A stretch of DNA of 64,000 bases from Bdellovibrionales bacterium (GTDB lineage: Bacteria; Bdellovibrionota_C; UBA2361; SZUA-149; JAGRAN01). The position numbers are program-made. Shown piece after piece: positions 1 through 6,000 of this stretch. Location: contig JAGRAN010000032.1 in assembly GCA_020434585.1 (NCBI GenBank), positions 11,013-75,012 of the forward strand, in the 5' to 3' direction. Within the stretch, counting starts at the first letter, position 1. The number at the start of each line of letters is the position of its first letter.

Positions 1-3000
1 AATACCTCAAAACCAGGACGGGAGGCTTCTAACCCCAAAGTTCTCCCGTCCATTTCAATTTTTTGTGAAGGTGATTTTGTTTGCTAACGATTTTCCAACG
101 CGAGCGTGCCTCCTGGGCGACGGCTACATGGACAGTAAGCCTGTAATGATAGTGTCAGTCGACCAGGGGGCCTTTTTCCACATTAATTGCACACCTGCTG
201 CTTGACTAATTTCTCTAGTCGCGCAATTGTTGCAGTGCCGCGTTGGAGCTTCGGCTCCTTGAAATTAGTCCTTCGCTGCACATTTTCTTTGCAGCAAATT
301 CCGACAACATATTTTCTGTGTTTCGTGCACGGCTTTGCCGTTTTTTCGGCTAAGCCGTGACGACGAGTCATGGTTTTATTCTCGTTTCTTCACAGCTTTA
401 GAAAGGGCGTCCGCTGCAGTGATGCATAGCATTACTTCGGCGGGCGTACCTTTTGGCAATGGGCTATGAGGAATCCTGCGCTCTTTAACCCTGACCTGAA
501 CGATTCAGGTCAGACAGCAGAAAGGCTTGCAATGTATCGGATCACGGCAATCTTGGTGCTTCTGGGGGCCATGTTCACCATGGTGCTCAGCGGCTGTGCG
601 TCTCACGAGGTTACGATCGAAGCGGACGGGCCGTTCGGCATCCATCTCCGCTTCACCTTCACCCCGATTCCGACGTGCGGCGAAGGTGCGAGTCCCATCG
701 GCTGGACCAAGCACGAGGGCAAGTGGTACCAGGTGTACGACACCGATGGCGACGGAATCGGCGACTGCGTGGTTGGTCCCGATGGTCAGGCCTACGCGAT
801 CAAGGTGCTCGAGGGGGATCCGGCTTCGCTGCCGATCTACCCGACCAAGCACTACATCAGCGGTCTGATCAACGTCGATACCCGGATGATCGAGCGCGCG
901 CATGAACCCGGCTGGTATGCCGGCCTGATCGCGCAAAACGGCATCGACATCCTCGAGTTCGATCCGTCGAGCACCTTCATCGACATCCAGATCGGTTTCG
1001 CTCCGGGCACGGTTCTGCGCGCGCCGGGCGAGTACGGACTCGATGCCGGCACCGAACTCGTTGCCGTCGGAGGCGACGCTGTTCAGCTCTACCGCTTCCA
1101 GGGTCAGGCCGCTGATGTCTACTGGATGCTGCGTGACAGTCTCGGCTTCGAGGACGTCACGCTCCAGACCGAGCACGGTCCGTTCCACTTCGACGGTGGC
1201 GTGGACGAGGTTGCCTTCTCCTGGCACGAGGCAACCCTCGCCGTGGAACGCCGCTAGCAGCACCATGCTTCGTCGCATGATGTTGCTGAGCGTGTGGGGG
1301 GTGCTGCTGCTTGCAGCGGCACCCCCCAGCTGTCGCAGCGCTGAGCAACAGGCTCTGCAACAGTTTGATGCAGTCACGTTTGAGCCGCTGTCCGATGAAA
1401 AGTGCCTAGGAATTGAGCGCCTCAAGCGTAGTGTCCTGAGGGTGTGGAAAAGTGACGGCGTATTCAGCGCAGTCTGTCTTGGCGAGTTCGAGCTCCTAGC
1501 CGCAGGCCACTCGCTCCGCGGTTTGGAGGTGCCAACTGAGCTCTACGTTGCACAGGTCATTTCCTATCCCGACGACGTTGCAGCAGGGTCCGTGATGCTT
1601 GACCAGGTGAGAGTTGGTCCCGAGGACGGCGAGCGTTCGTCCGATTGGGGATACGTGCGAACCGCCAAGCCGCTGGACGCACTTCCCGCAAGGATCAACA
1701 CCGAGCTTCATCTTGTTTCAGGTCAAGAAGTGGTGCTAGTAGGCTATCCGATGGCTCACGATGGTCACGCGCTTCACTCTGTGTCTGTTGTTCGGGCGAG
1801 AGTGAGCGATGATCGGGGTTCGGTGCTCACACTAGTCGGCCCCAAAGAGTGGCGGCATCCGTTGTCCGGTTTGTCCGGCGGAGCTGCGGCATTCTGGGAT
1901 GAATCGCTTGGGGATTACGTTGTCTTCGGGGCATTTTCCGCAACCCGCTGCTCAGAAGCACTCGATGACTGCGTGTATCTTGTAGTTCGTCCGCCTGTTC
2001 CGTTTGACTGAAGCTGCAGGCACAACTCTCTCCCCTCCGAGTCCTGGAGTAATCCAGGGCGGCCCCCTCCTTCCGCAAGGAAGGAGGGGTGCTTATTTTC
2101 TTAGCGTTTGTTCTCGTCGTCACGGACTTAATCATCTATGGCCCGTATTTGTTTCCTCGCTGATTCAGATTATAACCTTAGCGACTGAAGAACGGAGATA
2201 CTTATATGAATAAAGAATTAAAGATTGAAGCTGTGATGCACCCGTTCCCGCACACTGTCGGTGCCGATCAATCATTGCAGATTGCAAGAGATTTAATGAG
2301 TGAGCATGAAGTGCGACACTTGCCGGTTCAGAAGGCCGGTAAACTAATCGGAGTAATTAGCGATCGCGACATCAACTTTGCGCTCGCCGTCGATAAGACG
2401 GAGGCCGAGGATGAACACGTAGAAGATGCGTTTACCGAGGAGCCATATGTGGTTGAGCCAACGGAGCCGGTATATCGTGTCGCACGTCGAATGGCAGCAG
2501 ATCATATTGGCTGCGCGTTGGTAGCGAAGGGTGAGAGCCTAGTTGGAATCTTCACTACAGTTGATGCTTGCAGAACTCTGGCGGATCAATTGTCTGGAGA
2601 GTAGGCAGTAAGATAGCACTGGTCGGTCGTCGAAAAGCTATGACAACAGACCTCGCAATAAAGCGTTTGCGCCGACTCTAAGGTTCCGGAGTGAGTATCC
2701 GCCTTCCTGCACAATAAGCAGCGGTACGCCAACGGACGAGAACATTTGGCCTATGCTGCGCATTCCGTCACGGCTAATGTCGAAAGTGCCGGTCGGGTCG
2801 CCGCTCATGATGTCGTAGCCGAGCGACAAAACAAAATACTTAGGCTTAAATTTAGCGATGGAACGCAGCGCAGCCTGGAGCGTTTTTAAATAAAGCGCGT
2901 CGTCCACGGGAGGAAACAACGGGTAGTTCCGGTTGTATCCTTGACCTGGGCCTTTTCCAGTTTCGTCCTCAAAGCCGCAAAAATAAGGATAGGCTTGCCT

Positions 3001-6000
3001 CGGGTTTCCATGAATCGAAACTACGTAAACATCTTTGCGTTCGTAGAAAATATTTTGAGAGCCGTTGCCGTGATGGTAGTCGATATCAAGCAGTGCAACC
3101 TTGGCGTCCTTAGACAGATACTCTGCAGCTACTGCGGCGTTGTTGAAGTAGCAAAATCCACCAAATGCGCTCTTTTCTGCATGGTGACCTGGTGGTCGGC
3201 ATAATACATAGCAGCGCTGTGAGCCGTTCTTGATTAAGGATGCTCCAGTTAGTGCAGCGTCTACTGCGAGTCGCGCAGCTTTGTAGGCATTTCGAGTTAC
3301 AGGCGTAAAGGTGTCCAGACAGAAATATCCAGCTCGCATTTCCCAAGTGCGCGGAAGCCGGCGCTGCTGACGCAGAGGAAATACATTTGGGTAAACGAGT
3401 CGATCCGGAGAGAGTTCGTCCTGCGCTTCTCGAAGGAAGTGCACCAGCTTTTTATCGTGAATCGCAGTTATGTATTTTTCGCCAAAGTGACGCAGCGGAT
3501 GCTCCTTGTACGAGATATCGTGCAGCCCGCGCAAGATGGCACTAACTCTTGCAGGCCTCTCAACATACCCGCGCTCTTTTAAGTGATGTATCTGATGAGA
3601 ATCACCGGAGCAAACGATGTCAATTGAGAGCCGAGTGGGGGCTTTTGCCTTCCGATTTTTTAACCCGGAATATAGCGGGGGCCGAAGCTGAATAGGGTCG
3701 TCTTTCACAGACTTGACGATCGCTCGAAGTGTTGGGTCGCTGCTGGGCATCTGTGCCTTTGCGCCAAGTATGCAAGAGATCGTCGCCTGCACTTCCGCCC
3801 GAGACGGGTTTTTACCTTGGTCGAGCGAATCGTAAACCAAAAACGTAACGTAGCCTTGGTTTCCCTTATGCGCTTTTTTTTCGTAAGCGGTGTTAACTAT
3901 CGGACGCGCGCCAAAGCGTTCATAAAATTCCAGCCGCCGCTTGTTCATGGCGAGACGCTCGGGTTCTTTTAATAGCTCCGGAGCGTCAGGTGGCACGTCC
4001 ATGAAGATGCCGATACAAGGTTTGCGCCGAAAGTGTTCGCGAGTGGCTTCGTAAACCGCCGCGCCGTAACCCCGCTTCTTCCTAGCAGGGTCAGCAGCAA
4101 GGTAATCGAGGTAGGCGGCTTTGGCCTCCGGAAAGTAAAACGATAGACTGAATCCTAGTATTCGTTCTTTTGGCCCTTCTGCTACGAGCAGTACTGGTTC
4201 GAAGGTCTTAGAGTCCGGTTCTCGAAACAAGTCGGCAATCTTGGCGGCGTACTCGGGATAGTAGGAAAACGCACGACGGTAAATGCGAAGAACCGCTGCG
4301 AACAGCTTTTGTTCTTCGCGACGAATTGGGCTGTAAATTTGGCGAATTCTAAACATGAATGTCAGCCGCGGCTAAACACGGTTTTACGATTACAACAGTT
4401 GTATAAAGTTCCAAGCTTCGGTGCAAGGAGATCGACTGAAAGGAGTCCAAATGGTTGGCGGACCGGGAGAGTGTTTTTGCTAATCTAACCTCACTTGGTT
4501 TGTCCGCCATAAAGCGCTGCAGTCCGGTTTCCCGAACTGCAGCGGCTTCATTCTGACTTACTTATCCGGCTTCTCTCCGACCTCGGGAACTTCGGCGTCG
4601 AAGCGGCTGCGCGCAGCTTCATTCTCGGCCTGGTTCTCGAGCTGCATGCGCCGCGCCTTCTCCTCGAGGGATTCGGTCTCGACGCTGCGATGCTCGATCG
4701 AATCGGCGTTCTCGATCAGACTGCGAAGTCGCTGTTCGCGCTCTTCGACGATCGGGCTCGAGATGTCCGTCTGCCGACGAGTGACGATCTCCCACTGGGT
4801 GAGCATGATGGCGCCCAGCCACAGCAGCAGCATCGCTACGACGCTGACGATCGGGAACCCAGGTACCTTTACCGCCGCTTTCGCGCCGGAGTCGTCATCG
4901 GCCAAGCGCTCCTGGGCACGCAGCGCGTCGTAGCGCCGCTTGAAGTACCCGAAGATGCGTACCTTGACGAAGTACCAAGTGACGATCACCAGGACTGCGA
5001 ACAGTCCGATCTTGATCCAGGAGTAGGTGAGGAACTCCAGGATCGACGAATCGTTCATCATGTTCATGATGCTCCCTTCTGATGTTGCGAAGACAGGCGG
5101 GCCTTACTTGCCCTCCTGCTGCTGGGTGGCGGCGGGCTCCGGCTGGAACGCGTTGTTCGTGATGCCCATCAGCATCGCCGGGTTCTTAAGCGCTTCGTCG
5201 TCGATGATGAACACCTTGTTCGGCGAGGCCGCGAGGGTCTCCATCACCTTGATCATGCGCTGCGTGACGAACGCGGGAGTGACTCCCTCAGCCAGCTTCT
5301 GGTTGACCAGAACCTGGGTTTCGGCCTCGACGAGGTCGACCTCCTGCTGCTTACGCGCGACCTCTAGGGCGGCGTCGGCCTCCGTCAGCTTCACGAGCTT
5401 GTCGGCCTCGGCTTCCTTGATCTCGATCTCGCGCTTCTTCGCCGCCTCCTGGGCATCGATGATGACCTGGGGCGGGTCGACATTCGCCAGAGCGAGCACG
5501 GTCGCATCGATCGGCGTCTCGGCGAGCTTCGCCTGTACCGCTGCGTGAATCTCTTGCGAGACCGCGTCGAGGTTCGAAAGCACGTGCTCGATCGTGTAGT
5601 GCGTGATCACGTGTCGCGCCGTGGTCCGCACGATCTGCTGGGCGTAGGTCTCGTACACCTTCTCGAACGAGATCTGGTGAATGCGGGCGTCGTTGGTCGA
5701 AGCCGCCTCCAGTCGATCGAAGATGATGTTGACCCGTTCCTCCGCCCCCGAGATGGAGAACGTTCCGCGCACGTCGAAGGCCAGCTTGAGCTGATCCTCC
5801 GGCATGAACACGGTCATCGGCTCTTCCACCATGTTGTCAGACACGGCGGTGAGAACGAGGTGCGCCGGCGCCATCGGGTTGACCGGCAGACGGAAGGTGG
5901 ACGGCTGTTTAAGCTCGTCCTGAAAACCTTGAGAGGTTTTCACCTTGCCGACGTGCGCGGTCGGGACCTCGACCTGCTTGCCGCAGCCGGTCAGGGCGAT

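Follow-up and report, generated by a model that had tools for sequence, protein, structure and literature searches.

A widely conserved fusion of a GNAT acetyltransferase with an APAH-type deacetylase in a Bdellovibrionales bacterium, a candidate single-chain writer and eraser of acetyl groups on small amines

Enzymes that add acetyl groups ("writers") and enzymes that remove them ("erasers") are almost always separate proteins, and a gene that joins the two in one chain raises the question of whether both halves are active and, if so, on what. Such a gene lies in a stretch of 64,000 nucleotides from a Bdellovibrionales bacterium (assembly GCA_020434585.1, contig JAGRAN010000032.1, positions 11,013 to 75,012 of the forward strand), here called the window, in whose numbering its features are given. 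The gene is complete (2638..4356, minus strand) and encodes a polypeptide of 572 residues in which a GNAT acetyltransferase domain precedes a deacetylase domain of the histone deacetylase (HDAC) family. Each domain is a member of a well-known superfamily and the architecture has already been recorded generically in public annotation; the fusion family itself is an uncharacterised, conserved writer-eraser variant built on a deacetylase of the acetylpolyamine amidohydrolase (APAH) type. With regard to function, the reading that we favour, to which we give slightly less than an even chance, is that this cytoplasmic fusion is a bifunctional N-acetyltransferase/amidohydrolase, both domains of which would be active on a small cationic amine.

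That the two halves belong to a single polypeptide, as claimed in a preliminary description of this DNA, is borne out by the calling of open reading frames (ORFs) on the window, which gave one ORF with an ATG start, a stop codon at 2638-2640 and neither a frameshift nor an internal stop between the halves; all the motifs quoted in that description (RKKRGYGAAVYE, FYERFGARPI, RPPGHHA, DIDYHHGNG and GGY) are present in its translation. The ATG start is supported by M1, which is invariant across an alignment of 23 homologues. An identical protein has been deposited at NCBI from a 94-kb contig of a Bdellovibrionales metagenome-assembled genome (MAG), a second assembly made independently holds a protein with 85% identity to it, and the matches listed include more than 120 relatives of full length (about 570-580 residues, 47-59% identity); the fusion is therefore an artefact neither of assembly nor of a frameshift. 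A survey of its taxonomic spread, which the preliminary description had called for, was made on species-representative genomes with one genome per species and returned 80 full-length fusion loci; these being the best matches, the full-length protein is encoded in at least 80 such genomes, which span more than 10 phyla. The phyla include Pseudomonadota, Planctomycetota, Spirochaetota, Gemmatimonadota, Desulfobacterota, Bacteroidota, Chloroflexota, Synergistota, Nitrospirota, Myxococcota, Acidobacteriota and others. The fusion is real, ancient and widely distributed, and both of its active-site signatures appear, from the residue conservation described below, to be under strong purifying selection. 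The best 80 fusion-bearing species genomes (L006-L085) are virtually all MAGs, many of them from sediment, saline habitats or groundwater, and no cultured model organism is found among them.

The names under which these proteins are deposited record this architecture in generic terms at best. Many members carry the JGI name "AcuC-like enzyme/GNAT superfamily N-acetyltransferase", and at NCBI members are called "histone deacetylase family protein", an automatic label that obscures the GNAT half in many records. In NCBIfam, no named family was matched by the window fusion (E<=1) or by the fusion of another member, L068 (E<=0.001). Our literature search found no paper on the fusion or on the operon described below, a possibly relevant amidoligase paper (Iyer et al. 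2009) lying outside its coverage, and the architecture is not mentioned in a survey of bacterial deacylases (PMC11532494) or in reviews.

The chain can be divided into four parts. Residues 1-176 (3829..4356, minus strand, as for the other three) form the GNAT domain, residues 177-232 (3661..3828) a family-specific C-terminal extension of it, residues 233-244 (3625..3660) a flexible and poorly conserved linker, and residues 245-572 (2641..3624) the zinc-dependent APAH-type deacetylase domain. The full-length AlphaFold2 model has a predicted local distance difference test (pLDDT) score of 86 and a predicted template modelling (pTM) score of 0.75, pLDDT falling below 50 at residues 232-240, where the linker also varies in length and sequence across the alignment. 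Among solved structures, no single chain spans both domains. The assignment of the halves to GNAT and the HDAC family stands, both Pfam profiles scoring above their cut-offs: Hist_deacetyl (PF00850) matches residues 265-569 with E=1.1e-70 (238.8 bits, cut-off 27.9), and Acetyltransf_1 (PF00583) matches residues 22-121 with 24.1 bits in the full protein and 26.8 bits in the domain alone (cut-off 20.7), a marginal score for a single sequence. Residue conservation was assessed in an alignment of 83 fusion proteins drawn from the two clades of the family, A and B. Since the catalytic and cofactor residues are conserved at or near 100% among these members, both halves are, as judged by residue conservation, CATALYTICALLY intact and neither looks like a pseudo-enzyme, an outcome that the preliminary description had named as refuting its proposal.

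In the deacetylase half, the residues conserved in every member are H391, H392, D424, D426, H428, D515 and Y554. Their roles, assigned by residue type as in PMC11532494, are those of the tandem histidines (H391/H392), the zinc ligands (D426/H428/D515, with D424 neighbouring) and the catalytic tyrosine (Y554, in QEGGY). The solved structures closest in sequence are all APAHs, namely those of Mycoplana ramosa (3q9b, E=7.2e-65), Marinobacter (6phr), Pseudomonas (9gkz) and Burkholderia (3men), the four E-values ranging from 1e-62 to 7.2e-65. Foldseek gave a probability of 1.00 against many HDAC and APAH structures, and its top 16 matches were all APAHs, with TM scores of 0.84-0.88 normalised to the target. 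By this resemblance, the deacetylase is APAH-like, that is, of the small-molecule amine deacetylase type, rather than a generic HDAC. Bacterial polyamine deacetylases have been reported only from APAH cluster 4, whose members bear an extended L2 loop, the "polyamine-specificity" loop, which mediates a head-to-head dimer (PMC11532494). Like the bacterial APAH/ApaH enzymes of this cluster (3q9b, 9gkz), the C-terminal 330 residues of the fusion share the full arginase/deacetylase fold and catalytic set. A putative L2-loop region of similar length, residues ~315-345, aligns to the M. ramosa loop without large gaps and is modelled at a lower pLDDT of 65-78. The solved APAHs, on the other hand, are stand-alone proteins of about 340 residues, whereas the fusion adds an N-terminal GNAT module of 240 residues and carries a family-specific deacetylase motif, G-Y-x-C346-x-D348-T-F-T-P352. 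As a relative of the APAHs, the deacetylase domain plausibly acts on a cationic amine.

The GNAT half is more divergent, its identity to any solved GNAT being 21% at most. It shows the GNAT alpha/beta fold, and its identity as a GNAT is backed by both profile and fold: among 17 family members, 16 are matched by Acetyltransf_1 and all 17 by Acetyltransf_7 (PF13508). Motif A (R92-K-K-R95-G96-Y-G98-A) fits the Q/R-x-x-G-x-G/A pyrophosphate-binding loop, and motif B reads F144-Y145-E146-R-F-G-A-R-P. Conservation is complete (100%) at G96, G98, Y102, F144, Y145 and E146 and close to complete at R141, D124, L83 and D84 (Asp or Glu). The extension that follows the domain is made up of two helices (residues 186-200 and 208-215) and a motif, S216-x-x-D-D-P221-x-x-x-R225-x-P-x-Y229, of which S216, R225 and Y229 are kept in both clades; it is predicted to pack on the GNAT domain, because it reaches a pLDDT of 93-96 in a model of the N-terminal part alone. 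Compared with small-molecule GNATs such as the AAC(3)-I-like meta-AAC0020 (5u08) and an uncharacterised protein of B. thetaiotaomicron (3ey5), the fusion GNAT is set apart by its low identity, by this conserved helical extension of 55 residues and by being found only fused to a deacetylase. The subfamily is small: an exhaustive HMMER search with residues 1-232 as the query, run against 1.84 billion representative proteins, gave 381 matches at E<=1e-3, of which 138 also passed E<=1e-10, and inspection of the shorter matches revealed no convincing stand-alone GNAT of this subfamily. The short matches inspected were truncated or frameshifted fragments of the fusion, the longer of which continue into the deacetylase or into out-of-frame sequence and the shortest of which end inside the GNAT region. 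That no convincing stand-alone GNAT came to light suggests that the halves work together as one unit.

It is at the GNAT half that an alternative must be weighed in which the APAH domain alone would be catalytic and the GNAT domain would act as a sensor of acetyl-CoA or CoA, switching the deacetylase with acetyl-CoA status. The weak single-sequence score of 24 bits, the low identity to solved GNATs and the lack of a recognised Gcn5-type catalytic base, the Gcn5 glutamate aligning with Y82, are all compatible with such a regulated deacetylase, and the strictest conservation in this half (G96, G98 and the motif B region) falls on cofactor-binding elements that a sensor would need as well. Many GNATs use Asp, Tyr or water instead of Glu as the base. 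Against a sensor, Y145 and E146 are conserved in all 83 sequences and D84 (D/E) and D124 in nearly all, the conserved extension motif with S216, R225 and Y229 packs on the GNAT domain, and the conservation of this half exceeds what cofactor binding alone usually needs. We regard this alternative as unlikely. Of the functions suggested in the preliminary description, a substrate-shuttling or editing enzyme or a chain with one half as a regulatory or binding domain, either may apply: the sequence data favour two active domains but do not discriminate between the two.

The question of what the two domains act on can best be approached from the genes that accompany the fusion in other genomes. A neighbour-joining tree separates the family into two deep clades, the window protein falling in clade A together with those of Halioglobus, Nitrohelix and others. 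ORFs were called in 85 loci and their BLASTP clusters mapped relative to the fusion gene; the recurrent arrangement is a series of same-strand genes for proteins of about 440, 335 and 335 residues, often followed by one of about 158 residues, and then the fusion. The first of these is a KamA-family radical-SAM 2,3-aminomutase (LAM_C); the two proteins of about 335 residues are Ddl-like ATP-grasp ligases that score below all Ddl cut-offs; and the optional fourth is a small GNAT. Aminomutase and ligase genes accompany the fusion at 31 of the 67 clade-B loci (20 of 34 among those with adequate flanks), and the aminomutase stands beside it in one of 16 clade-A relatives (L009). Against the Clostridium lysine 2,3-aminomutase 2a5h the aminomutase gives E=1.6e-134 and retains the two Asp residues that correspond to D293 and D330, which we take, from that enzyme's structure, to bind the epsilon-amine of lysine; beta-lysine is for this reason its likely product. 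The gene order varies, for example in Bacteroidales, where it is aminomutase, fusion, ligase, ligase and small GNAT, and in one Bacteroidales MAG (L024, 369-10176) the aminomutase is preceded by genes for a C39-like peptidase, an RLAN-RimK ATP-grasp protein, a GCS2 carboxylate-amine ligase and an FGase amidohydrolase. This extended cluster resembles a pathway for a peptide-type metabolite. In three cases, L059 (6001-8286), P0184 (762 residues) and P0206 (738 residues), the small GNAT is joined to the C terminus of the fusion, giving the order GNAT, APAH and small GNAT. The deacetylase motifs of P0206 are degenerate, with DLEGSHGNG in place of DIDYHHGNG and QEGGRDG, which lacks the catalytic tyrosine, and its eraser half may have been naturally inactivated. 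Within clade A, three loci from distant lineages, L003 (Nitrohelix, 4417-7881), L008 (3305-5248) and L087 (5710-7623 and 9707-11152), carry another set of partners, a divergently transcribed gene for a protein of about 640 residues that combines a SAM-methyltransferase with a Ddl-like ATP-grasp domain, adjoined in L003 and L087 by a Peptidase_M32 carboxypeptidase gene. Much of the family is thus linked to enzymes that make beta-amino acids and form amide bonds.

A known parallel to the aminomutase operons is the AblA/AblB pair, a lysine 2,3-aminomutase and a beta-lysine acetyltransferase that make up the N-epsilon-acetyl-beta-lysine pathway. As in that pathway, the clade-B operons co-transcribe a lysine-type KamA aminomutase with GNAT domains, but the clade-B aminomutase scores 477 bits against the AblA model, below the equivalog cut-off of 525, and the Abl pathway has neither the two ATP-grasp ligases nor the deacetylase of the clade-B operon. 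The window differs further in that it has no aminomutase, and the fusion matches no curated beta-lysine acetyltransferase model. A second alternative, which overlaps with the reading we favour, takes the operons at face value and holds that the two domains carry out a dedicated pair of steps that make or turn over a beta-lysine-derived metabolite, the partner genes of the window copy lying elsewhere in its genome. The operon at 31 of 67 clade-B loci and at L009 of clade A, the ATP-grasp linkage in three further clade-A loci and the lysine type of the aminomutase all speak for it; however, no partner gene occurs within the 64 kb analysed here and most clade-A loci are without them, and for the window protein we hold this improbable.

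Under the reading of the fusion as a bifunctional amine acetyltransferase/amidohydrolase, the GNAT domain would move an acetyl group from acetyl-CoA onto an amine and the APAH domain would hydrolyse an acetamide to amine and acetate, the likely substrate being a compound in which a few carbons separate an acetamido from an ammonium group. Candidate substrates would be acetyl-putrescine, acetyl-cadaverine, N8-acetylspermidine and N-epsilon-acetyl-beta-lysine and its peptides; we reason that compounds of the N-epsilon-acetyl-beta-lysine type would match the acetamide-alkyl-ammonium geometry of APAH-type sites. At the level of the family, the linkage to aminomutase and Ddl-like ligase makes amines or peptides derived from beta-lysine the putative ancestral substrate class. 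In the operon setting, acetylation and deacetylation might bracket the ligation steps as a protection and deprotection pair, and in orphan copies such as that of the window the antagonistic pair on a single chain might set the ratio of acetylated to free amine according to acetyl-CoA supply. A bolder version of this proposal is that the fusion is the signature enzyme of an undescribed and phylogenetically broad pathway (aminomutase, two ligases, one or two GNATs and APAH) that would build or remodel an N-acetylated beta-lysine peptide or solute, while the orphans would serve as antagonistic writer-erasers on one chain; we offer it tentatively and consider it doubtful.

Several observations weigh against the bifunctional reading or narrow the substrates it can claim. 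In the M. ramosa enzyme E117 forms a salt bridge with N4 of the polyamine, and E106 marks the end of the L2 loop (PMC5454378, PMC11532494). Across the polyamine-contact set of that enzyme (E117, E106, Y168 and F225), the window protein does not preserve the pattern: unlike the solved APAHs, it has F350 in place of E117 and F401, invariant in the family, in place of Y168, so that neither of these polyamine contacts is kept; F225 corresponds in the sequence alignment to Y456; and the acidic residue at E106 is retained as E339, which varies across the family. D348, an invariant residue specific to the family, lies two residues away from where E117 aligns. The loss of the E117 and Y168 contacts means that classical acetylpolyamines may not be the substrate. 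On the GNAT side, conservation of the acetyl-CoA-binding residues would fit a sensor just as it fits catalysis, and if both domains worked on one and the same site of a substrate, acetyl-CoA would be burnt in a futile cycle unless the cycle was regulated. The genomic setting of the window copy is of little help to the proposal either: tblastn searches of the 64 kb revealed no KamA, ATP-grasp, small GNAT, RimK-like ligase, GCS2 or FGase gene and no significant homologue of the methyltransferase-grasp protein or of M32, and the remaining clade-A loci have unrelated neighbours. Because these partners are absent and the neighbours are unconserved, the beta-lysine link is, for the window protein, an extrapolation from the sister clade. 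The same searches found no significant homologue of Meth_synt_2 or of beta-CASP in the window.

A further difficulty for a small-molecule substrate is that deacetylation of a lysine peptide has also been reported for a cluster-4 APAH (PMC11532494), which makes a protein substrate possible. A third alternative builds on this type of target and sees the fusion as a writer-eraser of protein lysines or N termini, a one-chain analogue of AcuA/AcuC or Pat/CobB with, for example, an acyl-CoA synthetase as its target. In B. subtilis, acetyl-CoA synthetase is the target of the GNAT writer AcuA, the CBS protein AcuB and the HDAC-type eraser AcuC, and in the window a CBS-pair gene likewise adjoins a gene with GNAT and HDAC-family deacetylase domains. 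This likeness is superficial, since in the fusion writer and eraser share one chain with an APAH-like deacetylase, and the CBS gene of the window is convergent and unconserved, so it is not co-transcribed with the fusion. The deacetylase moreover has its nearest relatives in the cluster-4 APAHs rather than in cluster 2c, to which AcuC-type enzymes belong. No gene for an acetyl-CoA synthetase turned up among the neighbours that recur, and the partners that do recur, aminomutase and ATP-grasp ligases, are small-molecule enzymes. A protein-directed switch is accordingly, in our estimate, the least probable of the alternatives considered here.

Pairs of opposing reactions on one polypeptide are known from other systems, for example the GlnE adenylyltransferase/removase, the AceK kinase/phosphatase and the SpoT synthetase/hydrolase, in which the arrangement gives control of the modified fraction that is independent of enzyme level. 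The analogy with the fusion is conceptual; folds and chemistry are unrelated. A conserved single-chain pair with both sites intact, present in uncultured members of more than 10 phyla, would be a clean case of opposing activities, and if both domains do act on one amine pool, the fusion would add a new example of an antagonistic bifunctional enzyme that controls a set point, here in polyamine-like or beta-lysine metabolism. The operon, with its lysine-type aminomutase, two Ddl-like ligases that are not of the cell-wall kind and an extra GNAT, provides a handle on a possibly new beta-lysine-derived metabolite. The interest of the family would rise considerably if the operon makes a new metabolite or if the chain acts as a set-point enzyme.

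The immediate surroundings of the fusion gene in the window consist of a CBS-pair gene (2206..2604, plus strand; CBS E=2.1e-19) on its 3' side and, upstream on its own strand, a gene for a small membrane protein (4558..5067, minus strand) and an SPFH/Band-7 gene (5104..6117, minus strand), the SPFH, membrane protein and fusion genes being separated by gaps of 36 and 201 bp. The preliminary description had noted a CBS-pair gene converging on the 3' end of the fusion, and the gene is indeed present and convergent, 33 bp from the stop codon; as a partner it does not hold up, because it is not conserved next to other family members, and its position is probably incidental. The CBS, SPFH and membrane protein neighbours were considered as functional partners and set aside, as tblastn showed none of them to recur beside other members, the sole exception being a weak CBS match 5 kb from the fusion in Nitrohelix. 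In the clade-A locus L005 (1157-3470), two Band_7 genes and an NfeD gene lie about 4.5 kb upstream on the opposite strand; the proximity of SPFH/Band-7 genes to the fusion in both the window and L005 is probably a coincidence. A scan around the fusion for promoters and terminators gave no promoter-like site, and terminator-like sites were at background level.

Three ORFs (6562..7323, plus strand; 7332..8420, minus strand; 8622..9692, plus strand) are found just past the SPFH gene, and none of them is kept near other members as judged by tblastn. From sequence alone, our guess is that the first encodes a glycosyltransferase of the family-2 type and the other two SGNH/GDSL-like hydrolases. Farther along, the most GC-rich part of the window (30558-32162, GC 0.61) holds two ORFs on opposite strands that overlap almost fully, 30558..32072 (minus strand, 504 residues) and 30663..32162 (plus strand, 499 residues), and no more than one of the two is likely to be genuine. 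Just upstream of a minus-strand ORF of 611 residues (38418..40253), the same strand carries a cobalamin riboswitch at 40308-40428 (Rfam RF00174, 84 bits, E=3e-19).

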